Virus record (IMG/VR): IMGVR_UViG_3300027659_000020
Span: 1-64,000 of that record
Origin: a virus
Strand: one strand, 5' to 3'
DNA length: 64,000 nucleotides
A program made the translations under genes and the position numbers. How positions within the stretch are numbered: position 1 is the first letter of the stretch; each line of letters opens with the position of its first letter. Positions 6,633 to 23,203 of the stretch are shown here, one piece after another. The notes beneath the pieces were generated by a model. It made no database searches, was not told where the DNA came from, and worked only from the letters and a program-made list of their open reading frames with translations.

Positions 6633-7490
6633 ATGATTATCGTAGATTATTCTGGTGTCGCTATTGCCAATCTGTTTGCAATGAAAGCGGAGGTGTCAGA
6701 ACACTTAGTGAGGCATATGATTCTGAACTCGCTTCGAATGTATAACGTCAAGTACCGACACGAGTATGGCCAGATGGTTGTAGCCTGCGACGGCGGCAAT
6801 ACCTGGCGTAAGCAACTCTATCCGCAGTATAAGGCACACCGCAAGAAGAACCGCGAAGACAGCGGCCTCGATTGGACAGAGTTCTTCCGCATTCTCGGCA
6901 CAGTGCGCGATGAGATTAAAGAAAATCTGCCGTTCAAGGTTGTCCACTTACACGGCATAGAGGCAGACGATGTTATTGCCACAATGGTGTATCAGACGCA
7001 AGAATTCGGTAAAGGCGAGCCCGTAATGATTATCTCGGCTGACAAGGATTTTGTGCAACTGCACCAGTATAAAAACGTCAAGCAGTTCAGTCCGATGACA
7101 AAGGGTCTTATTAAAGAAGGCGATCCGGTTGCATATCTCTATGAGCATATTTTTCGCGGAGATTCCGGCGATGGCATTCCGAATGTTCTGTCGCCAGATA
7201 ATACCTTTGTAGATAGTATCCGTCAAAAACCAGTCACCACCAAGAAGATTGACGAATGGGTTAAGAATATCTCCAATCTTCAATCTGTTATGGATCAGGA
7301 GACTTATCGCAATTATCAGCGCAACCGCGCTCTGATCGATTTGTCTGCTATTCCTCCTACCAAAAAGCTTGAGATCATAAATACATTCGAGGCAGTGAAA
7401 CCAGCTTCAAACACACTAAACTATCTGATTGGCAAACGTTGCGCTCAACTCATTGAGTGCGCCGCGGAATTTAATTCTATCACACTATGA
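6633..7490 (+). CDS. rnh: T4-type RNase H / 5'-3' exonuclease
   Basis: WRKQLYPQYKAHR, EADDVIA, SADKDFVQL, GDSGDGIPN. Confidence 0.92.
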   Translation: MIIVDYSGVAIANLFAMKAEVSEHLVRHMILNSLRMYNVKYRHEYGQMVVACDGGNTWRKQLYPQYKAHRKKNREDSGLDWTEFFRILGTVRDEIKENLPFKVVHLHGIEADDVIATMVYQTQEFGKGEPVMIISADKDFVQLHQYKNVKQFSPMTKGLIKEGDPVAYLYEHIFRGDSGDGIPNVLSPDNTFVDSIRQKPVTTKKIDEWVKNISNLQSVMDQETYRNYQRNRALIDLSAIPPTKKLEIINTFEAVKPASNTLNYLIGKRCAQLIECAAEFNSITL

Positions 7491-7921
7491 AATACCTGAA
7501 AATCTACGAGGTGCTTTACAAGGCCTCTAATGCCGCTGCTACTGAAGAAAAGATTGCAATTCTCAAGGAGAATGATTCGCTAGCTCTCCGTGATGTTCTG
7601 CGCGCATCATTTGATGACAGCATTATCTTCACGCTTCCTGCTGGTATTCCAGGATATAAATCTGCCCTTTCAAATGAAGGACTTGCTCCAACCGATCTTC
7701 GGCGCGTTACCACTCACTTTACTTACTTCGTCAAAGGCGGCGAGGGCGAGAAACTCAAGCCAGCAAAGCGCGAATCCATGTTTATGGCTATCCTTGAAGG
7801 CGTGCATCCAGAAGATGCAAATGTTGTCTGTCAAATGAAGGAAAAGACTCTAGGAACCAAGTTTCCCGGAATTACCAAAGATCTGGTAAAAACTGTCTGG
7901 CCAAAATTGATTGCCAAATAA
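7487..7921 (+). CDS. conserved T4-like hypothetical protein following rnh
   Basis: KRESMFMAILEGVHPEDA motif. Confidence 0.75.
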   Translation: MKYLKIYEVLYKASNAAATEEKIAILKENDSLALRDVLRASFDDSIIFTLPAGIPGYKSALSNEGLAPTDLRRVTTHFTYFVKGGEGEKLKPAKRESMFMAILEGVHPEDANVVCQMKEKTLGTKFPGITKDLVKTVWPKLIAK

Positions 7922-7979
7922 TTCTTTGATGGCACACCTTGTGCTCACTATATCATGGCTTAACCCGTAATAACAACCC

Positions 7980-8159
7980 ATGATTACAAACCAACTGGAA
8001 AGACTCAAGCAAGACTGTCTAGAACTCGATTATTTCGTTCAGCGCTTACAGAAAGAAGGCAATGAAAAACGAGTTCAGGCTTTACAGCGAAAACAGCAGT
8101 ATCTTGAGGAATATATCCAGTCAATGCAACTAAGCCCACCAGCCGAGTTTGCGGCCTGA
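7980..8159 (+). CDS. small helical hypothetical protein (59 aa, below ORF-track cutoff)
   Basis: MITNQLERLKQDCLELDYFVQRLQKEG...PAEFAA*. Confidence 0.6.
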   Translation: MITNQLERLKQDCLELDYFVQRLQKEGNEKRVQALQRKQQYLEEYIQSMQLSPPAEFAA

Positions 8160-8169
8160 GTATTTTTAG

Positions 8170-8198
8170 TTTACATCCTGCGCAAAGTAGGATAAAGT
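8170..8198 (+). promoter_or_regulatory. sigma70-like promoter
   Basis: TTTACA-17-TAAAGT. Confidence 0.5.
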
Positions 8199-8210
8199 AT
8201 AGTCTATATT

Positions 8211-8783
8211 ATGAATATCTTCGTGTTAGATTCAGACCCCGTGCTTGCCGCACAGTATCAGTGCAACAAGCACGTTGTCAAGATGATTGTCGAGTCTGCT
8301 CAGATGCTAAGCACAACTCATCGTTTGCTTGACGGACTGTGCATTCCACAGTCTGTCACTAGCGCAAGGACGGGCAAGATTCGCCTCAAGAAAACATGGC
8401 AACTTAAAGATCAAGAAGCCAATGCTATTCTTTACAATGTCACTCATCCTGGGCATCCATCGACTGTCTGGACGATGGAATCGCTAGCAAATTATACCTG
8501 GCACTACCAGCACTTCTGCGCGCTGTGCGATGAGTATACTCACCGCTATGGCAAGACACACAAGACAGATGCCAAACTCCGACCTGTTCTGTGTTGGGCT
8601 CCGCACAATATACCCAATATCCCACAAACTCAGTTTCGTCTAGCCATGGAGTCTCAGCCTCAATGCAAGAATCTTGCTGATCCTGTAGCTTCATACCGCG
8701 CCTTCTATCGCACCAAGCAAAGCCGATTCAAGATGGTCTGGTCAAAGCGTACCACTCCTGACTGGTTTACTGGCAATACATAA
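8211..8783 (+). CDS. pyrimidine-dimer DNA glycosylase (DenV)-like family protein
   Basis: MNIFVLD..P..AA...CNKHVVKMIVESAQML, HPSTVW, EYTHRYGKTH. Confidence 0.8.
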   Translation: MNIFVLDSDPVLAAQYQCNKHVVKMIVESAQMLSTTHRLLDGLCIPQSVTSARTGKIRLKKTWQLKDQEANAILYNVTHPGHPSTVWTMESLANYTWHYQHFCALCDEYTHRYGKTHKTDAKLRPVLCWAPHNIPNIPQTQFRLAMESQPQCKNLADPVASYRAFYRTKQSRFKMVWSKRTTPDWFTGNT

Positions 8784-13959: not shown

Positions 13960-14035
13960 GCCCTTGTAGCTCAGTTGGTAGAGCACCAGTTTTGTAAACT
14001 GGTTGTCGTCGGTTCAATCCCGTCCGAGGGCTCCA
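13960..14035 (+). tRNA. tRNA-Thr(TGT)
   Basis: cloverleaf, CCAGT-TT TGT AA-ACTGG, encoded CCA. Confidence 0.95.
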
Positions 14036-14039
14036 TTTT

Positions 14040-14110
14040 GCACTAGATTCATCTTCAAAGTGAATCAAAGATTCCGACCCAATAAAGTAAAGTCGAAACG
14101 GAGTGCACCA
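14040..14110 (+). ncRNA. tRNA-like element ending in CCA without canonical D/T loops
   Basis: GCACT/AGTGC-ACCA acceptor-like stem; GATTCAT/GTGAATC hairpin. Confidence 0.45.
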
Positions 14111-14115
14111 AATTT

Positions 14116-14212
14116 CCCTTCACGGTGTGAGGGTCTGATGCCAGCAAGCGATGCTTTCCGATTCGGTTGCGTTCTTCGTATCGCCCAAGAGCAAGATTCA
14201 GATAAAACCGTT
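14116..14212 (+). ncRNA. putative structured RNA
   Basis: CCCT(T)CAC/GTGAGGG, TCTGA/TCAGA, GCGATG/TATCGC. Confidence 0.4.
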
Positions 14213-14223
14213 ATTTATTTTCT

Positions 14224-14298
14224 GCACAGGAAGTCAACTGGTTAGACCGCAGCTTGCAAACCTGCTATTAGCGAGTTCGATTCTCGCCCTGTGCTCCA
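14224..14298 (+). tRNA. tRNA-Cys(GCA)
   Basis: GCACAGG/CCTGTGC, GCA anticodon, CCA. Confidence 0.88.
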
Positions 14299-14308
14299 TC
14301 GATTTTAC

Positions 14309-14398
14309 GGAGGAATGGCTGAGTCCGGTTTAAGGCAACTGACTTGAAATCAGTCGTGGGGCAACTCACCGTGGGTTCAAATCCTACTTCCTCCGCCA
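14309..14398 (+). tRNA. tRNA-Ser(TGA)
   Basis: long variable arm, ACTGA-CT TGA AA-TCAGT. Confidence 0.95.
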
Positions 14399-14404
14399 CT
14401 TTTC

Positions 14405-14490
14405 TGGCGCGTCGCATAGCGGCTATTGCAGGAGACTGTAAATCTCCCCTCTTCGGATACCCCTTGGTTCGAGTCCAAGCGTGCCCACCA
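14405..14490 (+). tRNA. tRNA-Tyr(GTA)
   Basis: GGAGA-CT GTA AA-TCTCC; apparent U1-C72 mismatch. Confidence 0.9.
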
Positions 14491-14503
14491 ATTTCATTGA
14501 TAA

Positions 14504-14579
14504 GCTGGGGTAGCTCAACGGTTTGAGCAGCGCGTTTACATCGCGAAGGCTGGGGGTTCAAATCCCTCCCTCAGCACCA
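14504..14579 (+). tRNA. tRNA-Val(TAC)
   Basis: cloverleaf, TAC anticodon, CCA. Confidence 0.92.
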
Positions 14580-14590
14580 TTTTATTTTTA

Positions 14591-14666
14591 GGGCTCATAT
14601 CTCAGTTGGTAGAGAAGCTGCTTTGCAAGCAGAAGGTCGCAGGTTCGATCCCTGTTGAGTCCACCA
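14591..14666 (+). tRNA. tRNA-Ala(TGC)
   Basis: G3-U70 pair, TGC anticodon. Confidence 0.95.
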
Positions 14667-14676
14667 TTTTTCTCAA

Positions 14677-14806
14677 TTTCCGCAAGGGAACAGGTGTATC
14701 TAGTGAATGGCACACGCCCAATGGGAGGCGCAAGCCGTTAGACCAAACCACTAGGATAACCACCACTGGGAAGGGGGCGGGGAGCGATCTCCTCCCCCAA
14801 CTTTTT
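14677..14806 (+). ncRNA. putative structured RNA with GNRA hairpins and terminator-like end
   Basis: TTTCC-GCAA-GGGAA; CTAGTG/CACTAG; AATGGC/GCCGTT; G-rich-GCGA-C-rich hairpin plus T-run. Confidence 0.5.
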
Positions 14807-14821
14807 TATTCTTTACTTTAT

Positions 14822-14896
14822 ACGGACGTGGTACATTAGTAGTGCAGCAGTCTCCAAAACTGCCTTATGAGGGTGCGATTCCCTCCGTCCGTGCCA
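14822..14896 (+). tRNA. tRNA-Trp(CCA)
   Basis: ACGGACG/CGTCCGT, GCAGT-CT CCA AA-ACTGC. Confidence 0.9.
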
Positions 14897-14898
14897 AT

Positions 14899-15120
14899 TT
14901 GCCAGAATCTGATGATTTGGATTTTCTCATGTATTAAATCCAGGGTAGGTTTAATTCCCCCCGGGCAATTCATTTTGCGGCAGCAAGGGACCCCGCTAAG
15001 TCGCGGATATTTGGCGCTGTCAGCTGGTATCAAGCCCAGCCTGCAATTCAATTTTTGATAGTTAGCACACCCTTAATGAGGTCAGCTTTAATAGACTTGG
15101 GTACGGAATCAACTATCAAA
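14899..15120 (+). ncRNA. three tandem tRNA-sized stem-closed elements
   Basis: closing stems TTGCC/GGCAA, TTGCGG/CTGCAA, TTTGATAGTT/AACTATCAAA separated by T-rich spacers. Confidence 0.4.
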
Positions 15121-15121
15121 T

Positions 15122-15333
15122 TTTGAATAGCAGCTCGGAGTGTAGAAGATTGTTTCCATCTTCGGTACGAGCACGGTCTCTAGCCGTCAGCGGAAAAACG
15201 CAGAATGTAACGAAAAGCCTCTGGGTTCATTAACGGCAAGTTTATTGGGAAACATTAAACTTGCCGGAATCTATGCGTAAATAGGAAACTCGCTGGAGTG
15301 TAGCCATATAAAGCAAAACTACACCTATTCAAA
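15122..15333 (+). ncRNA. ~210-nt structured RNA with loop-loop pairing
   Basis: TTTGAATAG/CTATTCAAA closing stem; 11-bp CGGCAAGTTTA/TAAACTTGCCG; loop TGTTTCC complementary to loop GGAAACA. Confidence 0.65.
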
Positions 15334-15341
15334 TAATTTTA

Positions 15342-15416
15342 GGGGTGGTAGCTTAATGGCGAAGCACCAGCTTGTCACGCTGTAGATTGCGAGTTCAAAT
15401 CTCGTCCATCCCGCCA
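15342..15416 (+). tRNA. tRNA-Asp(GTC)
   Basis: cloverleaf, GTC anticodon, GCCA end. Confidence 0.92.
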
Positions 15417-15425
15417 ATTTCATCT

Positions 15426-15845
15426 ATGAATACTCAAACTAAAAAAATAGTAGTTGCCAGCGGTTATTTTAACCCGATTCATGTCGGGCATATCGAATAC
15501 CTTGAAAGGGCTAAGGAACTTGGCGACAAACTAGTCGTCATTGTTAATACCGATGCACAAGTAAAGATCAAGGGTTCTGTTCCATTTCAGACCGAGCAAG
15601 ATAGATTGCGCATTGTTCAGTCACTAAAAGTGGTAGACCAAGCAATCTTATCCATCGATACCGATGGAAGCGTTTGCCGCTCACTTGTCTTTTTGAAGCC
15701 AAATATCTTTGCTAAAGGCGGAGATAGGCATTCTGGCGAAATTCCAGAAAAGGTAGTATGTGATGCTCACGGAATTGCTATCATAGATGGTCTTGGAGCT
15801 AAGATTCGATCTAGCTCTAGTATAATTTCTGCCGCCATCGTCTAA
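15426..15845 (+). CDS. cytidylyltransferase-family (HxGH) nucleotidyltransferase
   Basis: SGYFNPIHVGH, FAKGGDR, KIRSSS; stop lies within tRNA-Glu. Confidence 0.88.
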   Translation: MNTQTKKIVVASGYFNPIHVGHIEYLERAKELGDKLVVIVNTDAQVKIKGSVPFQTEQDRLRIVQSLKVVDQAILSIDTDGSVCRSLVFLKPNIFAKGGDRHSGEIPEKVVCDAHGIAIIDGLGAKIRSSSSIISAAIV

Positions 15846-15905
15846 CGGTTAGGACAACGGGTTTTCATCTCGTTAATCGGAGTTCGATTCTCCGTGGTGG
15901 TACCA
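15831..15905 (+). tRNA. tRNA-Glu(TTC)
   Basis: GCCGCCA/TGGTGGT, TTC anticodon. Confidence 0.92.
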
Positions 15906-15909
15906 CTTT

Positions 15910-15986
15910 CGGCGATTAGCTTAGTCTGGTAGAGCGCCTGGTTTGGGACCAGGAGGCCGCAGGTTCAAATCCTGCATCGCCGACCA
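15910..15986 (+). tRNA. tRNA-Pro(TGG)
   Basis: CGGCGAT/ATCGCCG, TGG anticodon. Confidence 0.95.
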
Positions 15987-15995
15987 CTTTTAGTC

Positions 15996-16003
15996 TATAA
16001 ATA
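15996..16003 (+). promoter_or_regulatory. T4-type late promoter
   Basis: TATAAATA ending 9 nt before ATG. Confidence 0.7.
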
Positions 16004-16012
16004 GCTGATACG

Positions 16013-16666
16013 ATGAAATCCTTTAAAGAATTCCTTAGAGAATCGCAATTCGCAAATAATACTCAGAAGACGCAGGTTGCCACGACCGGCGGTACCTATG
16101 AGAAGACTGGTGCTTTTCTGAAAGACAAACTGAAGCCACACTCAAAGATTGTCAGCATTGGAGCCGGGCTTGATCATACACGAGATGCAATGCACCGCGG
16201 CCTTGGACATAGTCATACAATCGACGATATGGAGCCAAATCCGGAAAAACGCAAGAATGCCCCTGAGTATACTAAGTCTGAACAGATTCCTCATAATCAT
16301 TATGACGCAGCGGTTTCGCACAATGTGCTAAATGTGGTTGAGCCTCATGTTCGCGATCACGTGATGCATTCAATTTTCAACTCAGTTAAGCCTGGCGGTC
16401 ATGCAGTAATTGGAGCCCGTAAGTGGACTGGTGATGTGGCCAAAAACAAAAACAAAACTTTGGCCTCTGAGCCAAAGGCTATGTGGGTTCACAAAGGAAC
16501 TGAGCATTCGTATCAAAAAGGATTTGACGGAGACGAACTTAAGAGTTATGTCGAAGGCTTTGCTGCAAAGCACGGTCACAAGGTCAAGGTGAGTAATCTA
16601 AAAGGCATTTCAGCCAATGGAGTTCATGTTCACATCCTTAGCAAGGGTAATCGTCCGGCTTCTTAA
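16013..16666 (+). CDS. class I SAM-dependent methyltransferase-like protein with capsid-targeting-like N-terminus
   Basis: MKSFKEFLRE; SIGAG, YDAAVSHNVLNVV, VKPGG. Confidence 0.75.
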   Translation: MKSFKEFLRESQFANNTQKTQVATTGGTYEKTGAFLKDKLKPHSKIVSIGAGLDHTRDAMHRGLGHSHTIDDMEPNPEKRKNAPEYTKSEQIPHNHYDAAVSHNVLNVVEPHVRDHVMHSIFNSVKPGGHAVIGARKWTGDVAKNKNKTLASEPKAMWVHKGTEHSYQKGFDGDELKSYVEGFAAKHGHKVKVSNLKGISANGVHVHILSKGNRPAS

Positions 16667-16679
16667 ACCATTTTCTGAT

Positions 16680-16755
16680 GGTAGTGTAGCTCAGCTGATA
16701 GAGCACGCGCTTGATAAGCGCGCGGTCCTCGGTTTGATCCCGAGCGCTACCACCA
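16680..16755 (+). tRNA. tRNA-Ile(GAT)
   Basis: CGCGC-TT GAT AA-GCGCG. Confidence 0.92.
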
Positions 16756-16764
16756 TATTTACTC

Positions 16765-16858
16765 GGAGGATTGGCAGAGCGGTTTAATGCAAGACTTTGC
16801 TAAAGTCTAGGATGATAAATAACTCGTCCCGCAGGTTCAAATCCTGCATCCTCCGCCA
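16765..16858 (+). tRNA. tRNA-Ser(GCT)
   Basis: long variable arm, GCT anticodon. Confidence 0.93.
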
Positions 16859-16865
16859 CTTTCGT

Positions 16866-16939
16866 TGACCCTTTGTGTAATGGTAGCACAGGAGACTTTG
16901 ACTCTCCTAGTCATGGTTCGAGCCCATGAGGGTCAGCCA
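16866..16939 (+). tRNA. tRNA-Gln(TTG)
   Basis: TGACCCT/AGGGTCA, TTG anticodon. Confidence 0.93.
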
Positions 16940-16949
16940 ATAGCTTTCT

Positions 16950-17369
16950 TTATAGTTCTCCGCGCTTGATCAGAATTGCTTTGTTAATCTGATGACTTTC
17001 TGCCACGAGTTCTTTGTTCTCACCCTGATAAGGAACAGCATAATTATTATTGATTAGCCAATGATTCAGATTAGTGCCGTCATCTAGAATAAACTCACCG
17101 AGGATACGACCAAATTTGTCGTCGTTATTATCCGGCTTGAGAGTGTTAACCTTGACCCAACTACCCGCAGGCAGTTTTTCGGCAAGCTTCTTCTTAGATA
17201 GAAGACCGCGCGGCTTCTCTTCCTTGTTGGATGTGCGTGATTCGGGAGTATCCACTCCAGCCATACGAACGCGCTGATTAGCTAGCACGATATTAAAACC
17301 GAGATCCAGATCGATGTCGACTGTATCGCCATCTAGAACCTTATTGACTTTGCATGAGTATTGGTACAT
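16950..17369 (-). CDS. thermonuclease (SNase)-family nuclease
   Basis: VLDGDTVD, RMAGVDTPESRT, KFGRILG; likely start MYQY. Confidence 0.88.
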   Translation of the reverse strand: MYQYSCKVNKVLDGDTVDIDLDLGFNIVLANQRVRMAGVDTPESRTSNKEEKPRGLLSKKKLAEKLPAGSWVKVNTLKPDNNDDKFGRILGEFILDDGTNLNHWLINNNYAVPYQGENKELVAESHQINKAILIKRGEL

Positions 17370-17458
17370 AGTTACAGTATTTATCGAATTATAAATATTC
17401 TTGCTATAAAGATTCATCAGCTTTCACAGTTCAATCTTAACTTTACTACTGTTAATAC

Positions 17459-17650
17459 ATGCTAGTGATCCGCAGAATGGTCGACAAGCATAGGTCTTAC
17501 ACCGCTATCTTTCTTAAAGGTGAGCAGCCTAAGATCTTTCCTACTTCGGATTACGAGCATGCTAGAATCCTAAAGATCTTCAAGCAGGATAAAGCTTATG
17601 AAGATGTTCTAAACGATTTTACAGATTATGGGCGAGTGGCGGAATGGTAG
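17459..17650 (+). CDS. hypothetical protein
   Basis: 63 aa; stop lies within tRNA-Leu. Confidence 0.6.
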   Translation: MLVIRRMVDKHRSYTAIFLKGEQPKIFPTSDYEHARILKIFKQDKAYEDVLNDFTDYGRVAEW

Positions 17651-17713
17651 ACGCGAAGGTCTTAGAAGCCTTTTCCTTTTGGAGTGCAGGTTCGATCCCT
17701 GTCTTGCCCACCA
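17630..17713 (+). tRNA. tRNA-Leu(TAG)
   Basis: GGCGGAATGGTAGACGC D-arm, TAG anticodon, variable arm. Confidence 0.94.
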
Positions 17714-17719
17714 TTTTAC

Positions 17720-17795
17720 GGTCCTGTAGCTCAACGGTTAGAGCAGAGGACTCATAATCCTTTGGTTGCGGGTTCAAATCCCGCTGGGACCACCA
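17720..17795 (+). tRNA. tRNA-CAT, probably Ile2 (lysidine-type)
   Basis: GACTCATAATC anticodon arm resembling bacterial Ile2; elongator Met not excluded. Confidence 0.85.
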
Positions 17796-17810
17796 TATAC
17801 ATATTTCTAT

Positions 17811-17886
17811 GCGGTAGTATCTCAGTTGGTAGAGAACGAGTTTTCCAAACTTGATGTCGCAGGTTCGATCCCTGTCTGCCGCACCA
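17811..17886 (+). tRNA. tRNA-Gly(TCC)
   Basis: GCG acceptor start, TCC anticodon. Confidence 0.92.
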
Positions 17887-17901
17887 ATTTCACATACATA
17901 T

Positions 17902-18411
17902 ATGAGCATTGCACATCTTCTAGGTAATGGTCCTTCCCGCAAGGACTTTGTAAATGACCCCAATGGGCCAGCATTTGGCTGTAATTTATCTGATTCTGCG
18001 TTACCACTAAAGGCAACGTTCATCATGGATAAAGTCTGCATTGGACATATCCATAATAATAAGTTGAAGCTAAACTTTCCGGTGATTGTGCCGCAGAATA
18101 TAACGCGGCTCGTGCAACAGTGCGATCCTGCACCAGTTATTCTAGATACTATCTTAAATAACGTTGAGAATGGAGAATCTACGGGACATAAAGCGGTCGA
18201 ATATCTGCTCAGCAAAGGCTTTACTGAGATTCATATGTGGGGCTTTGATTCGCTCTACCGCGAGACGATAGAATCTGATAGCCATACAAAGATGCCCGAG
18301 TGTCCAGCGTCTGCAAATAACTGGAAGAAATGGCGTAAGAACTGGCAAAGTATCTTCAATTCCGAGCTTGGTAAGAAGTGCAAGTTCGAGGTTCATGGGA
18401 AGCCCTTGTAG
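17902..18411 (+). CDS. GT29/Maf-like (GNGPS...GFD) Rossmann-like protein
   Basis: LLGNGPSR, GCN, STG..A, IHMWGFD; stop lies within tRNA-Arg. Confidence 0.65.
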   Translation: MSIAHLLGNGPSRKDFVNDPNGPAFGCNLSDSALPLKATFIMDKVCIGHIHNNKLKLNFPVIVPQNITRLVQQCDPAPVILDTILNNVENGESTGHKAVEYLLSKGFTEIHMWGFDSLYRETIESDSHTKMPECPASANNWKKWRKNWQSIFNSELGKKCKFEVHGKPL

Positions 18412-18478
18412 CTCAATTGGAAAGAGCACCGTTTTTCTAAATCGGCGGCTGTGGGTTCAAATCCCGCCGAGGGCACCA
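18402..18478 (+). tRNA. tRNA-Arg(TCT)
   Basis: GCCCTTG/CGAGGGC, TCT anticodon. Confidence 0.9.
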
Positions 18479-18481
18479 GAA

Positions 18482-18706
18482 TTATGCAAGCTGTTGCAGC
18501 ATCTTAATGATGTGCTCGGCTTTTGACCACTGGCCAGAATCGATAGCTGCAAGCAATTCTTTTTTTAGATTGTACACTATATCAGCTAGATCGGTACCAA
18601 GTATACTGTTTCCAATCGAGTGTGAAGCTTGAGGTGGAGTATGCTTGCCGTAAATGCTAGCAGCTTGCTTGATCCCTATGGAATTACTGATGGGGCTTAT
18701 TTCCAT
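18482..18706 (-). CDS. hypothetical protein
   Basis: 74 aa, minus-strand TATAAATA at 18713-18720. Confidence 0.6.
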   Translation of the reverse strand: MEISPISNSIGIKQAASIYGKHTPPQASHSIGNSILGTDLADIVYNLKKELLAAIDSGQWSKAEHIIKMLQQLA

Positions 18707-18864
18707 TTGAGCTATTTATAAAAAGCGTACTTTCTTCTGCTTGTCAGAAGTAATGGTGGAGGGCTTCATCTAAGAAGCCCCTCGCGACTGAGTAACCTGC
18801 GCAGTGGTTGCTCCTTATTTCTAACCGTCTGTTGGTAATCAATAGCTTAGGTAATTCAAAGTGC

Positions 18865-18892
18865 TTTACATTTTTAGTGGATGACGTAGGAT
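18865..18892 (+). promoter_or_regulatory. sigma70-like promoter
   Basis: TTTACA-16-TAGGAT; exact IHF consensus AATCAATAGCTTA at 18837-18849. Confidence 0.6.
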
Positions 18893-18898
18893 TATCCT

Positions 18899-19366
18899 AT
18901 GAATTCAATGCCTACCATCACCTTCACCGCTGGTTGCGGTGGTTCTGGCAAAAGTACAATGCTCAAGAAGAACTACCCCGGTTTGCCTGGCGTTGACTCG
19001 GATGCCATCAAGATGGCGATGCCGAACTACGATTCAGCTAATCCGCAGCTGGTGCACGATGCATCTACGACGATTGCCATGCGCGAATTCTACTCCCGGC
19101 TCGGCGCTGGCAAGGATTTCTTCTTCGATGGAACTGGCAAAAACGTCGAGAAATACATCAGCCTTATCACTGCTGCCAAGGCTGCTGGCTTCCAGACACG
19201 GATGTTCTTTGTTCGCGCTAAGATTGAAACCTGCCTTGCTCGGAATGCTGCTCGGACACGAGTGGTTCCAGCGGAGGTTATTCTTGAAACCTACCAAGCG
19301 CTTGAGGTTGCACAAAGCATTCTAAAGCACTACGTTGACTTCTATGAGGTTGTCAATAACGACTAA
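18899..19366 (+). CDS. P-loop kinase (AAA_33/zeta-toxin-like)
   Basis: AGCGGSGKST, DSDAIK, FDGTG, RNAARTRVVP. Confidence 0.82.
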   Translation: MNSMPTITFTAGCGGSGKSTMLKKNYPGLPGVDSDAIKMAMPNYDSANPQLVHDASTTIAMREFYSRLGAGKDFFFDGTGKNVEKYISLITAAKAAGFQTRMFFVRAKIETCLARNAARTRVVPAEVILETYQALEVAQSILKHYVDFYEVVNND

Positions 19367-19370
19367 TTTT

Positions 19371-19748
19371 GGGCGCGTTCTGGATTCTACTTAATGGTGG
19401 ACTTACTGGAAGCAAGCATGGTTGCTGGACCATTCAAAACCTGCAAAAACACAAACGGCATCAACAATGTCATCGCTGCAATCTTCGGTCAGACCGAGCA
19501 GCATCAGCTCGCTGCCTAATAACAGCGACCGATTCTAGTACCGATACTCGCTGAGTATTGGAATCGTCATCTAGCGAGTCTTGAGTGTTAGGTTTTTACT
19601 TGGTTAGTAGCACTCGAGTACACAAATCGAAGTTATGCTGAGATGAGAGCAAGTCCTCTTCTCAGAAGAACACAAATCTTGCTAAGCTTGTAGAAACTGG
19701 ATAGAAAAACTGCTAAGCACGCGGGTTCAACTCCCGCCGCGTCCACCA
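19371..19748 (+). ncRNA. ssrA: tmRNA; tag reading frame GINNVIAAIFGQTEQHQLAA** at 19457-19519
   Basis: GGGCGCG/CGCGTCC-ACCA with G3-U, GGATTC 5' motif, GGTTCAACTCC T-arm, tag ending LAA then TAA TAA. Confidence 0.93.
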
Positions 19749-19752
19749 ATTT

Positions 19753-19920
19753 ATGAGTATAGACAAAGCAATTAAACACAAAAAAGAAAAACGCAAAGAA
19801 TACCGTGGATCAAAGCGGTTTGATCGCACGTGCCGAAATCACGGGAGATGCCCTTACTGTGCTGGCGGCCGCCAACATAGGATGCGTCGGCAAGAACCAA
19901 TAGACCAGCTTTCTGAATGA
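19753..19920 (+). CDS. small basic Cys/His protein (55 aa, below track cutoff)
   Basis: MSIDKAIKHKKEKRKEYRGSKRFDRTCRNHGRCPYC. Confidence 0.7.
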   Translation: MSIDKAIKHKKEKRKEYRGSKRFDRTCRNHGRCPYCAGGRQHRMRRQEPIDQLSE

Positions 19921-19935
19921 TCTCGCTGGTTCTAT

Positions 19936-20124
19936 TTAACCAGAACCATTTATTTTCTTGAACTCAATCTTACCAGATTGAATGATGACCTCAAATGTGT
20001 CTCCATGCTGTACTCTCAAATGCTCAGGTCTGAGTTCGTCATCGAAGATGATAGAGTCATCCTCAGTAAGCTTAAAGCTGTAGTCTAGGAATGTAGTAGG
20101 AAACTTCTGCAGATCGTGATGCAT
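19936..20124 (-). CDS. hypothetical protein
   Basis: 62 aa ORF. Confidence 0.55.
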   Translation of the reverse strand: MHHDLQKFPTTFLDYSFKLTEDDSIIFDDELRPEHLRVQHGDTFEVIIQSGKIEFKKINGSG

Positions 20125-20157
20125 TTAGTTATCTATCTAAAATTTTCCATTTTATTG

Positions 20158-20212
20158 TTTACAGATGCACTAATCAATGTATGATCTAGTCTGTAATCTT
20201 CGTTCTTTAACA
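20158..20212 (+). promoter_or_regulatory. promoter plus boxA-like antitermination motif
   Basis: TTTACA-16-TATGAT then CGTTCTTTAACA (rrn boxA consensus TGCTCTTTAACA). Confidence 0.6.
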
Positions 20213-20215
20213 TTT

Positions 20216-20314
20216 TTCAAGTAGATACCCGTTTAATGAAAATAATCGCCCAATATGTCTGAGGCTGGTTACTACGGTGCGGAAATTGACAAATACACCG
20301 AGCATCTACTTGAA
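20216..20314 (+). ncRNA. putative structured RNA
   Basis: 11-bp TTCAAGTAGAT/ATCTACTTGAA closing stem; internal CGGTG/CACCG. Confidence 0.55.
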
Positions 20315-20317
20315 TCA

Positions 20318-20409
20318 TTTCACAGGTCGCTCTGTTGAAACTCTAAAGGTTATGTCGAGCGCTAGTGACCCTTGCCGGTATCACACAGGTTGACCTCTAA
20401 CCTTTAGAG
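20318..20409 (+). ncRNA. putative pseudoknotted RNA
   Basis: 12-bp CTCTAAAGGTTA/TAACCTTTAGAG; upstream GGTCGCT pairs with internal AGTGACC. Confidence 0.55.
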
Positions 20410-20417
20410 AATTTTTT

Positions 20418-20786
20418 CTCTGGATTGATCTCCGGAGGCTCCGTTCCTGAGGCAGGTTTTCTCGAACTTGTTGTCACCACGGGCGTAAGCAGTACTGGAA
20501 TCTTTGTGATAAGGAAACAAGCCTTGGCAAAGACTGCATTACGACGCCGATGGAACGGAGTAACTTTCATCATCATACTCGACTAGGCGAGTCTAAATAG
20601 AAGTATAGGCCTAGTGCGGCAGGGATAACCTCCCTGCGACTTGCCACGCCGCAGTCCGGTCGAGCTCCCGGTTAAAGCCAAAAGCGCTGCGTGAATAAAC
20701 GTGAGAACAAAAATCCGCTGGAGTATATCTCTCTGGAGTATAAATAAATCTCACTGCGATTTAGATATTCGCAAGCGTGGCGCCAC
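20418..20786 (+). ncRNA. large (~370 nt) multi-stem noncoding RNA candidate
   Basis: CTCCGTTCC/GGAACGGAG, ACTAGGC/GCCTAGT, TGCGGC/GCCGCA, GCAGGGA/TCCCTGC; no ORF of 60 aa or more within it. Confidence 0.55.
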
Positions 20787-20807
20787 ATTTTGTTCTTTTT
20801 ACATTTT

Positions 20808-20882
20808 TGCAGAGTAGATCAGTGGTAGATCGCTTGGCTCATAACCAAGAGGGCAGGGGTTCAATTCCCTTCTCTGCACCCA
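20808..20882 (+). tRNA. tRNA-Met(CAT), initiator-like
   Basis: GGCTCATAACC anticodon arm, A11-U24 D-stem pair. Confidence 0.88.
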
Positions 20883-21289: not shown

Positions 21290-23203
21290 ATGCATAATAC
21301 AAACAACCGAATAAACCTGAAGAACAAATTGCTTTCTAGCATTCTTTTCTTCTTTTTTGCAGTCACAGCGTTTGCCCTTCCCGGCACCAGCGCTACTAAT
21401 CTGCAGACAACTACCGGAGTTTCCGCCACAGCTAGTGGCGCAACCCTCTCTATCGCAGCTCCAAACAAATCAGTTTTGACATGGCAGAATTTTGGAAGTG
21501 GTGCTGATGCTATCGCTGCAGGCGATACTATCAATTTTGCACTTCCTTCTATCTCGTCATCTGTTCTGAATATTGTTGCTGGCGGTGCTCGTTCCACGAT
21601 TGATGGAACAATTACCTCTAACGGTAACGTATTCTTGCTGAATGGCAGCGGTGTACTTATTGGCAATGGCGCACGCATTGAAACCAACTCGCTTTGCATC
21701 AGCACTTCCGACAATGCAGCATTCGCGAATTACTACTTTCAACAAAGCGGAAAGCTTCCTTCTCAGGACAGTCTAGTTCTTGCTGCTGGATCAACGCAGA
21801 TCAATTCTGGATCGGTTATTACCGTGACAGAGAATATCTCGCTTTACACGAAAAACCTCGAGCTTGGTGGTGCAGTTATCAATGGCAATCTGCGCGTTAA
21901 TGCAGATGGCATTGTTAACCTGGGTTCATCTGGTTTGACATTCGTTAATGGTAATATCGCAGTTACAAATCCAACGGGTCTAACGACTCTTGGCTCAAGT
22001 GGCAATAATCTGCTCTTTAGCAATGCAATTACTATCGATGGCGGCGCAGTCAATCAGCCAATCAACTCATCTGTCTCTGCAAAGAGTCTGACGATTGAGG
22101 CAGGGACCAACAATGTCTCATTGGCACGAGTCACTGTTCCAGCTATTGTAGCAAATGGAAATAACGTGAGCGTGACTTTTGGCGCTGTCGTCAATCCTAC
22201 CTTTAGCTCAAATGCCACCGGGAACATTGCAGTGGTATCTCCAACCTCTCTGGCTGTCAATAATTTGAAGAATAGCACAGGCACCACAAGTGTTCTGGCA
22301 TCCGGTGCACTAACTCTCGGCAATATCCATGTGGATTCTGCAGCCGCTACTACATTCACTGGCTCTTCAGTTTCTGATTCACGGGCTAATTCCTTTGTCT
22401 ATGGTCCAGTGACATTTGCTGCTACTGCAGGCGATGTCAGTCTGACCAAAGAAGGACATAGCTTTGGCCCTGTCAGTGTTACTGCCACCGGCAATGCCAC
22501 TATTACTGAATCAGCCGCGCTGAATCTAAATGTAGTTAATGCTGCAAGCTTGGTAGCGAAGTCGAATGAATTTATCTTTCAGACGCCCGCTACCGGTGTA
22601 TTGACAACTCAATCCGCAACCATTACTACTGCTGGCAATGTCACGCTAAATGCAGTTACGAATAACATCGGAAATCTTACTGTCTCCGGCGCTAACATCG
22701 CAGTGACCACCAGCTCTGCAATTGCTCTGGGCAATACTGATACTGGTGGTACATTGACTCTCGGCACCTCGGGTGCAATCACTCAAAGTGCTGATACGAA
22801 GATCAATGTCTTTGGCACAACTACTCTAACTACAATAGATAATGCAATCACTCTGACCAATGCCGGTAATCGATTCGGTGGGCTGAATTTTGATACCGGT
22901 CTGGGCGGCACGATCCTTGTAACCGAGGATACCACTCTGAATGTAAGCGCCCTTCGTGCCAATACAGTTACTCTTAAGAGTCTCGATAGTGTTATCACTA
23001 CCGGAACAAATGCAGTAACCGCGAATCTCGTTAATGTCCTGGCTGGAAAAGACTTCATTCCTGCAGCCAACTTCCGCGCTAATAATGGTCTGACTGTTCT
23101 GGCAAGTGGAACCGCAGATCTCAGCCTACTGAGCCTATCGGCTAATCTGAACAATCGTATGCCAAGCATCATTGCCACAGCATTCAAGACACCAACTCCG
23201 TAA
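21290..23203 (+). CDS. secreted beta-helical protein with filamentous-haemagglutinin N-terminal (TPS-like) domain
   Basis: signal peptide ..TAFA|LP; LTWQNF, SSVLNIV, IDGTITSNGNVFLLNGSGVLIG; repeated beta-rung motifs. Confidence 0.82.
   Translation: MHNTNNRINLKNKLLSSILFFFFAVTAFALPGTSATNLQTTTGVSATASGATLSIAAPNKSVLTWQNFGSGADAIAAGDTINFALPSISSSVLNIVAGGARSTIDGTITSNGNVFLLNGSGVLIGNGARIETNSLCISTSDNAAFANYYFQQSGKLPSQDSLVLAAGSTQINSGSVITVTENISLYTKNLELGGAVINGNLRVNADGIVNLGSSGLTFVNGNIAVTNPTGLTTLGSSGNNLLFSNAITIDGGAVNQPINSSVSAKSLTIEAGTNNVSLARVTVPAIVANGNNVSVTFGAVVNPTFSSNATGNIAVVSPTSLAVNNLKNSTGTTSVLASGALTLGNIHVDSAAATTFTGSSVSDSRANSFVYGPVTFAATAGDVSLTKEGHSFGPVSVTATGNATITESAALNLNVVNAASLVAKSNEFIFQTPATGVLTTQSATITTAGNVTLNAVTNNIGNLTVSGANIAVTTSSAIALGNTDTGGTLTLGTSGAITQSADTKINVFGTTTLTTIDNAITLTNAGNRFGGLNFDTGLGGTILVTEDTTLNVSALRANTVTLKSLDSVITTGTNAVTANLVNVLAGKDFIPAANFRANNGLTVLASGTADLSLLSLSANLNNRMPSIIATAFKTPTP

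Follow-up and report, generated by a model that had tools for sequence, protein, structure and literature searches.

RNase P cuts precursor RNAs at position +1 of the tRNA, and messages that lack a stop codon are substrates of transfer-messenger RNA (tmRNA). In bacteriophage T4, the segB mRNA forms part of the tRNA precursor, and maturation of tRNA-Arg has been proposed to cut it between the last sense codon and the stop, thereby lowering expression; the endonuclease open reading frames (ORFs) of the T5 tRNA region were mentioned likewise by the same authors (Brok-Volchanskaya et al. 2008, PMC2330249). Among bacteria, the overlap between smpB and ssrA of Carsonella is described as yielding a stop-less smpB message, and the accompanying survey recorded 250 cases of a coding sequence (CDS) upstream on the same strand per 115,660 tRNA and tmRNA genes (together, t(m)RNA genes)—with phage genomes outside the counts (Hudson et al. 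2014, PMC4131195). Here we examine this arrangement in the tRNA array of an uncultured virus, represented by the first 64 kb (64,000 nucleotides, nt; hereafter the window) of the 89.5-kb IMG/VR record IMGVR_UViG_3300027659_000020, for which completeness is estimated at ~54%. Three protein genes embedded in the array, encoding a nucleotidyltransferase (NT), a conserved small protein (ORF63) and a protein with a predicted sialyltransferase/MptE-like fold (ORF169), have their stop codons inside the next tRNA gene, and we consider it likely (a probability of roughly 0.65) that these overlaps are a by-product of the packing and exchange of cassettes between the tRNA genes of phage arrays. Since the idea that t(m)RNA maturation takes away a stop codon has already been published, for T4 segB in 2008 and for Carsonella smpB together with the bacterial survey in 2014, what sets phage arrays apart is the frequency of the arrangement.

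The array spans positions 13960-20882 and comprises 18 tRNAs and one tmRNA, all found on the + strand by ARAGORN and Rfam and all encoding the CCA end. The 5' ends of the tRNAs were placed with ARAGORN and with Rfam RF00005 (gathering score 29), which gave identical positions, and the scores of tRNA-Glu, tRNA-Leu and tRNA-Arg (55.8-65.5 bits) resemble those of the remaining array tRNAs. An initial annotation of the window had reported three CDS stops inside the next tRNA; this was confirmed, with the 5' ends agreeing between the two methods and the sequence and ORF list fitting (Table 1). All three stops fall in the D-arm of the tRNA that follows. The NT gene intrudes by 15 nt, its stop occupying positions 13-15 of tRNA-Glu; ORF63 intrudes by 21 nt, with a stop at positions 19-21 in the D-loop of tRNA-Leu; and ORF169 intrudes by 10 nt, its stop coinciding with U8-A9-G10 of tRNA-Arg. 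The resulting tRNA-coded tails amount to four (AAIV), six (GRVAEW) and three ((K)PL) residues, respectively. None of these tails is conserved and all lie outside the protein cores, the conserved or folded part of each protein ending at or just before tRNA +1. Judged by their homologues, all three are real genes. One further ORF, a small basic one with a GTG start (14060-14245) that ends in tRNA-Cys, was rejected as unsupported; it is the only such ORF ending in a tRNA.

Compared with the described systems, the locus resembles T4 segB and the T5 genes hegC, hegD, T5.057 and T5.069 in that protein genes lie within a phage tRNA cluster on the strand of the tRNAs, whereas the products differ: homing endonucleases in T4 and T5, and here a nucleotidyltransferase, a sialyltransferase-fold protein and a small protein. 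In the T4 RefSeq record, segB terminates 5 nt short of the annotated tRNA and not inside it, and the curated T5 record annotates overlaps for all four genes named above, with stops 6-24 nt inside the next tRNA. To our knowledge, neither T4 nor T5 carries a tmRNA. The window also follows the logic of the class defined by Hudson et al., in which a CDS runs into a same-strand t(m)RNA and RNA maturation should leave a stop-less message, with C-terminal extensions that are 'apparently random' and set by the depth of CDS intrusion (PMC4131195); each of the three cases joins a tRNA called by two methods to a homology-supported, same-strand upstream CDS with its stop inside the tRNA. The difference lies in abundance: bacteria show the arrangement very seldom (250 cases among 115,660 t(m)RNA genes, PMC4131195), whereas it affects three of the 19 t(m)RNAs here (~16%, far above the bacterial rate) and about half of the ORF-tRNA junctions in phage arrays.

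Two more distant systems invite comparison. With Escherichia coli arfA, for which RNase III makes a stop-less message and the truncated product is active, the likeness lies in a specific processing event that is expected to deprive a message of its stop; here, however, the nuclease would be RNase P acting at a tRNA, in place of RNase III acting at a hairpin, the proteins made are unrelated enzymes and nothing suggests that a truncated form is the active one. A programmed stop-less message of the arfA type was rejected, given that the record contains no match to the ArfA family PF03889, even at E <= 10, and that ordinary stops occur among the orthologues of every one of the three genes. Mitochondrial tRNA punctuation is similar in that messages are delimited by flanking tRNAs within one precursor, and the ORFs here begin 9-26 nt beyond the preceding tRNA and end at the next one. 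Stop completion of the mitochondrial kind was likewise rejected: the sequence before tRNA +1 ends in TCT for NT, in TAT (a complete codon) for ORF63 and in AA for ORF169, so that addition of A creates no stop codon.

Table 1. Features of the window, numbered from its first nucleotide (aa, amino acids).
Feature	Position	Strand	Details
ClpP-family protease homologue, 202 aa	10678..11286	+	Pfam 45 bits; Ser, His and Asp of the catalytic triad line up with those of solved ClpPs
NT gene, 139 aa, RfaE domain II/cytidylyltransferase-like	15426..15845	+	ATG 15426, TAA 15843-15845
tRNA-Glu(UUC), encoded CCA	15831..15905	+	ARAGORN; Rfam RF00005 56.8 bits
Methyltransferase-like gene	16013..16666	+	own stop, 13 nt before tRNA-Ile; internal non-overlapping comparison
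TATAAATA, T4-late-promoter-like motif	17390..17397	+	61 nt before ORF63
ORF63, 63-aa conserved small protein	17459..17650	+	ATG 17459, TAG 17648-17650
tRNA-Leu(UAG)	17630..17713	+	ARAGORN; Rfam RF00005 55.8 bits
ORF169, 169 aa, sialyltransferase (CstII)/MptE-like fold (predicted)	17902..18411	+	ATG 17902, TAG 18409-18411
tRNA-Arg(UCU)	18402..18478	+	ARAGORN; Rfam RF00005 65.5 bits
Zeta-toxin/AAA_33-type P-loop kinase gene	18899..19366	+	own stop 4 nt before tmRNA; internal non-overlapping comparison
Phage tmRNA, tag GINNVIAAIFGQTEQHQLAA	19371..19748	+	ARAGORN; Rfam 105.6 bits
TATAAATA sites across the window	15996, 17390, 18713(-), 20739, 30267(-), 30302, 47703(-), 48166, 53186		

The three genes differ in family and in the behaviour of their homologues. 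The NT gene product matches Pfam CTP_transf_like (1.8e-14) and NCBIfam rfaE_dom_II (1.6e-25, residues 3-134). Its homologues, at 36-67% identity, have their own stops with no tRNA nearby, as illustrated by the one in L001, which ends in ...SSSWLLSRKD. ORF63 is an acidic-tailed small protein. Metagenomes and a number of NCBI assemblies supply at least 175 homologues of it, and among these the best 120 listed are ~69-90% identical over a 57-residue core; the family, which follows the core pattern MLVIRRMVDKHRSYTAIFLKGE.PKIFPTSDYEHARIL.I.KQDK...NDF, has no match in Pfam, NCBIfam or PHROG. In the window the conserved core ends in ...NDFTDY, exactly at tRNA-Leu +1, and the tails of the homologues vary, with some running on into tRNA-Leu-like sequence (…VAEWQTRRS) and many stopping directly after the core. 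The L057 orthologue terminates on a stop of its own, 8 nt short of a different tRNA.

ORF169 has 47 homologues and carries a GNGPS motif; its sequence gave no match in Pfam or NCBIfam and no tblastn match in cultured phages. The predicted structure reaches a predicted local distance difference test score (pLDDT) of 93.5, and its last strand ends at residue 165. Foldseek placed CstII first (E 6e-5, template modelling (TM) score 0.50), together with GT29 enzymes, and also returned MptE-like HPPK and thiamine pyrophosphokinase. The label 'GT29-like' used in the initial annotation is fair at the level of the fold only (CstII, sialyltransferase/MptE-like, TM ~0.5) and does not extend to membership of a sialyltransferase sequence family (GT29/GT42). 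ORF169 is ~100 residues shorter than CstII and would, on this structural model and at fold level only, represent a minimal protein with the sialyltransferase (CstII, GT42/GT29)/MptE-like fold.

Among the three genes, only ORF169 retains the overlap across several lineages (counted here as identity groups). In relatives it is nearly always found between tRNA-Gly and tRNA-Arg, although it precedes tRNA-Arg(CCG) in L059 and tRNA-Leu in L060/L063. The closest homologues, P0001-P0006 (67-87% identity), terminate in …KPL, …KPS or …KPSS, C-termini that look tRNA-coded from the protein ends alone. The ORF169 stop sits at tRNA U8-A9-G10 in four lineages: this phage, the L007 group (L007/47/49/50/52/65; 61% protein identity, acceptor GTCCTCG), the L061 group (L061/62/64; 52%) and L059, the last with tRNA-Arg(CCG). 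Three lineages (L053, L055 and L060/63) have an ORF169 stop of their own 1-4 nt before the tRNA, and L008-L011, L046, L048 and L051 have one more than 130 nt away from it. In most of these far-stop lineages positions 8-10 of tRNA-Arg read TCG, and hence the TAG is not on offer there.

The same variability characterizes the junctions of the wider clade, whose contigs come from lake and other freshwater metagenomes. With duplicates removed, ~11 of 20 ORF-tRNA junctions in the relatives overlap, and across this phage and its relatives the distance from ORF to tRNA varies without a break between +13 and -24 nt. ORFs of 157 aa (L011), 199 aa (L011/L046), 164 aa (L060/63), 146 aa (L061/62), 193 aa (L061/62) and 94 aa (L063) end inside tRNA-Pro, tRNA-Thr, tRNA-Arg, tRNA-Asn, tRNA-Ala and tRNA-Glu, respectively. 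Two further candidates were discarded: a 139-aa ORF ending in tRNA-Trp (L047/49/50), which has no family match, and an 88-aa ORF ending in tRNA-Glu (L011), which reads through another tRNA. Many of the overlapping ORFs are HNH or endonuclease VII genes (L011, L060, L061 and L082, among the relatives and Hena1), which are typical mobile elements; Pfam detected no HNH, GIY-YIG or endonuclease VII domain in NT, ORF63 or ORF169.

For a comparison outside the clade, the tRNA arrays of five unrelated cultured phages, including T5, Hena1 and pEa_SNUABM_47, were scanned for ORFs independently of annotation, counting as junctions all ORFs of at least 100 aa within 60 nt of a same-strand tRNA. Six of the 12 junctions so defined end inside the tRNA, a proportion that the window does not exceed, and ARAGORN found no tmRNA in the examined stretches of these five phages. 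In Erwinia phage pEa_SNUABM_47 (L083, MT939487.1), the conserved genes at 7268-7879 and 7899-8324 run 14 and 10 nt into tRNA-Cys and tRNA-Lys, respectively; they match phrog_22577 (1.3e-99) and phrog_27499 (3.6e-67), and both are absent from the deposited annotation—gene calling may have dropped them because of the tRNA overlap. As overlaps are equally common in stretches of cultured phages without a detected tmRNA, they constitute a general trait of phage tRNA arrays that is independent of a phage tmRNA. The arrangement is ordinary for such arrays and matters little for this window in particular. Its significance lies elsewhere: about half of the ORFs packed against array tRNAs end inside them, genes of this kind can be missed in the annotation of cultured phages, and the presence of the same feature in the cultured phages T5, Hena1 and pEa_SNUABM_47 makes the question of stop-less messages, and of their effect on protein levels, approachable without the uncultured phage.

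The structure of tRNA genes themselves provides stops in the right place. We counted stop triplets in three sets of distinct tRNAs: 18 from the window, 171 from the metagenome loci and 70 from the cultured phages. In each set, 48% of the frames that run into a tRNA reach a stop within 24 nt; the figure for random sequence of the same composition is 37%. The commonest positions of the first stop are 8, 13 and 20/21, corresponding to the conserved U8-A9-G10 and to D-loop triplets, and the stops used by the three genes (8, 13 and 19) essentially match them. A gene that comes to abut the 5' edge of a tRNA, whether by displacement or by insertion there, would thus be expected to lose its own stop harmlessly; about half of such frames would hit a stop within eight codons, at D-arm positions 8-10, 13-15 or 19-22, and the proteins would gain 3-6 tRNA-coded residues outside their folded cores.

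For the messages, the likely course of events would begin with co-transcription of the ORFs with the tRNAs and translation from the unprocessed precursor, which should be easiest during ongoing transcription. Cleavage by RNase P at tRNA +1 would then leave an upstream message without a stop and without a protective 3' structure, trans-translation, using the tmRNA of host or phage, would rescue the ribosomes remaining on it, and decay of the message would follow. From the geometry and the known biochemistry, we infer that the messages probably become stop-less and short-lived after RNase P cleavage. Low or short-lived expression of the array-embedded genes would be the likely net effect, an outcome tolerated by selection and not built as a circuit. 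The protein ORFs of the array start 4-26 nt downstream of the CCA end of the preceding t(m)RNA, and no Shine-Dalgarno sequence is visible after the preceding t(m)RNA ends; processed messages would therefore be almost leaderless.

How far these events take place depends on whether ORFs and tRNAs share transcripts. The motif TATAAATA, the T4 late-promoter consensus, has nine matches in the window against 3.5 expected, a number reached in two of 100 shuffles, and most copies lie just upstream of ORFs in matching orientation. The copy at 17390 is a possible start of a transcript covering ORF63, tRNA-Leu, tRNA-Met, tRNA-Gly, ORF169 and tRNA-Arg, although such co-transcription is inferred. A scan for sigma-70 promoters gave 12 promoter-like sites against 14.7 expected. 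The RNA data are assembled contigs from lake metatranscriptomes: seven lake-water runs contain small portions of the stretch, and contigs were aligned from three of these and from one run of unrecorded type. In two RNA contigs (15678-15852 and 15594-15852) the sequence continues from the NT gene for 22 nt past the 5' end of tRNA-Glu, the threshold for bridging being 31 nt and DNA carry-over being possible. Within the array, summed contig depth peaks over the tmRNA (33-866), a figure that does not measure expression.

Against this background, the overlaps might have no consequence for the messages at all, should ORFs and tRNAs reside on different molecules or be transcribed at different times, or should processing be slow relative to translation and decay, such that stop-less messages are rare. 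The TATAAATA motifs do suggest separate late promoters before some of the array ORFs, and with coupled transcription and translation the first bacterial ribosome would reach the stop before the 3' half of the tRNA is transcribed. We nevertheless regard this account as unlikely, since the scan found no terminator-like hairpin between any of the three ORFs and its tRNA, so that the ORF transcripts should include the tRNA, and since the processing of phage tRNA precursors by RNase P is generally efficient, as established for T4. Control in the reverse direction, whereby ribosomes terminating in the D-arm keep the 5' half of the tRNA unfolded and upstream translation delays or gates tRNA maturation, is hardly credible. 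Stops 8-21 nt inside the tRNA would indeed place a terminating ribosome over the 5' strand of the acceptor and the D-arm, but the affected tRNAs have no common theme (Glu, Leu and Arg here; Thr, Pro, Ala, Asn and Trp elsewhere) and orthologous junctions without an overlap exist.

The initial annotation suggested a circuit coupling protein level to tRNA processing and trans-translation capacity. In its dedicated form, stops inside tRNAs would be selected, RNase P would create stop-less messages, the phage tmRNA would tag their products and the phage ClpP-like protease would degrade them with a host unfoldase. All of the parts are present—three overlaps, a phage tmRNA whose tag ends in LAA and a ClpP homologue with an intact triad, the last two as initially reported—and the tmRNA is conserved in relatives, as is the ORF169 overlap in several lineages. 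We nonetheless judge the circuit improbable. Orthologues with ordinary stops, the observation that the initial annotation had itself set against its proposal, were found for NT, ORF63 and ORF169; overlaps are equally frequent in the stretches of T5, Hena1 and pEa_SNUABM_47, where no tmRNA was found; the stops used are the commonest ones of the D-arm; and the three genes share no function. Neither SmpB nor ArfA was found in the 89.5-kb, ~54% complete record, and the ClpP gene belongs to a distant module. A gene ending a few nt before the tRNA would, in addition, suffer an equal loss of 3' protection after RNase P cleavage. What survives of the initial interpretation is the stop-less message, which established RNase P and trans-translation biochemistry would predict provided that genes and tRNAs share a transcript; the link to a tmRNA/ClpP circuit is unsupported. 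A wider proposal strikes us as a long shot: that RNase P 'punctuation' is a device shared by phage tRNA arrays as a class, deliberately depriving the messages of embedded genes of their stops, and that in this freshwater T4-like clade the long-tag tmRNA, and perhaps the ClpP homologue, was enlisted to deal with, or profit from, the stalled ribosomes and tagged proteins that result.

The by-product explanation, which the initial annotation had offered as a fallback, fits the comparative data best, given the variable junctions, the continuum of distances and the mobile cassettes. That cassettes move supports packing: the SNase-like gene described below appears inverted between loci, and ORF169 precedes different tRNAs. 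Several points nevertheless weigh against it. The overlap of ORF169 with tRNA-Arg is kept from 87% down to 52% protein identity despite a changing acceptor stem (GCCCTTG, GTCCTCG, GCCTACG), a persistence that could reflect selection and not inertia; all close relatives in the sample carry a tmRNA, so that a link to tmRNA may exist; and the controls, 12 junctions from five cultured phages, form a small sample.

Regarding the genomic setting, the window encodes T4-type baseplate wedge genes, T4 RNase H, PhoH and ribonucleotide reductase. A blastn search with the array for cultured relatives at the DNA level returned tRNA matches only, and the tmRNA sequence had no match in cultured phages. The tmRNA tags of the clade (window, L007, L008 and L063) are unusually long, at 20-24 residues, with a Gly-Ile start and an LAA end. 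The ClpP-family gene is flanked by PhoH, a PD-(D/E)XK nuclease and RNase H in a nucleotide-metabolism/PhoH module; as it lies outside the head module, the product is probably not a prohead protease.

Other elements of the array deserve mention. The P-loop kinase gene shows weak PSTK and Pnkp-kinase matches besides Zeta_toxin/AAA_33, and its product is a candidate 5'-kinase of RNA or tRNA, with a possible link to the array. A staphylococcal-nuclease-like (SNase-like) gene at 16950-17417 (-) lies on the strand opposite to the tRNAs in the window; its orthologue in L060/L063 (~80% identity) occupies the tRNA strand, with its stop 3 nt before tRNA-Gln, and the opposite orientations look like the inversion of a cassette. 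A T-rich motif such as CCA-ATTT follows most of the array t(m)RNAs. Downstream of the tmRNA and ahead of the last tRNA-Met, where the array holds RNA genes only, a full-length match to the Pistol ribozyme was found at 20577-20643 (+) (Rfam RF02679, 54.5 bits; gathering score 34.5). Finally, a 637-aa protein encoded at 21290-23203 (+) combines a two-partner-secretion (TPS) domain with DUF5649 repeats, an unusual cargo for a phage.

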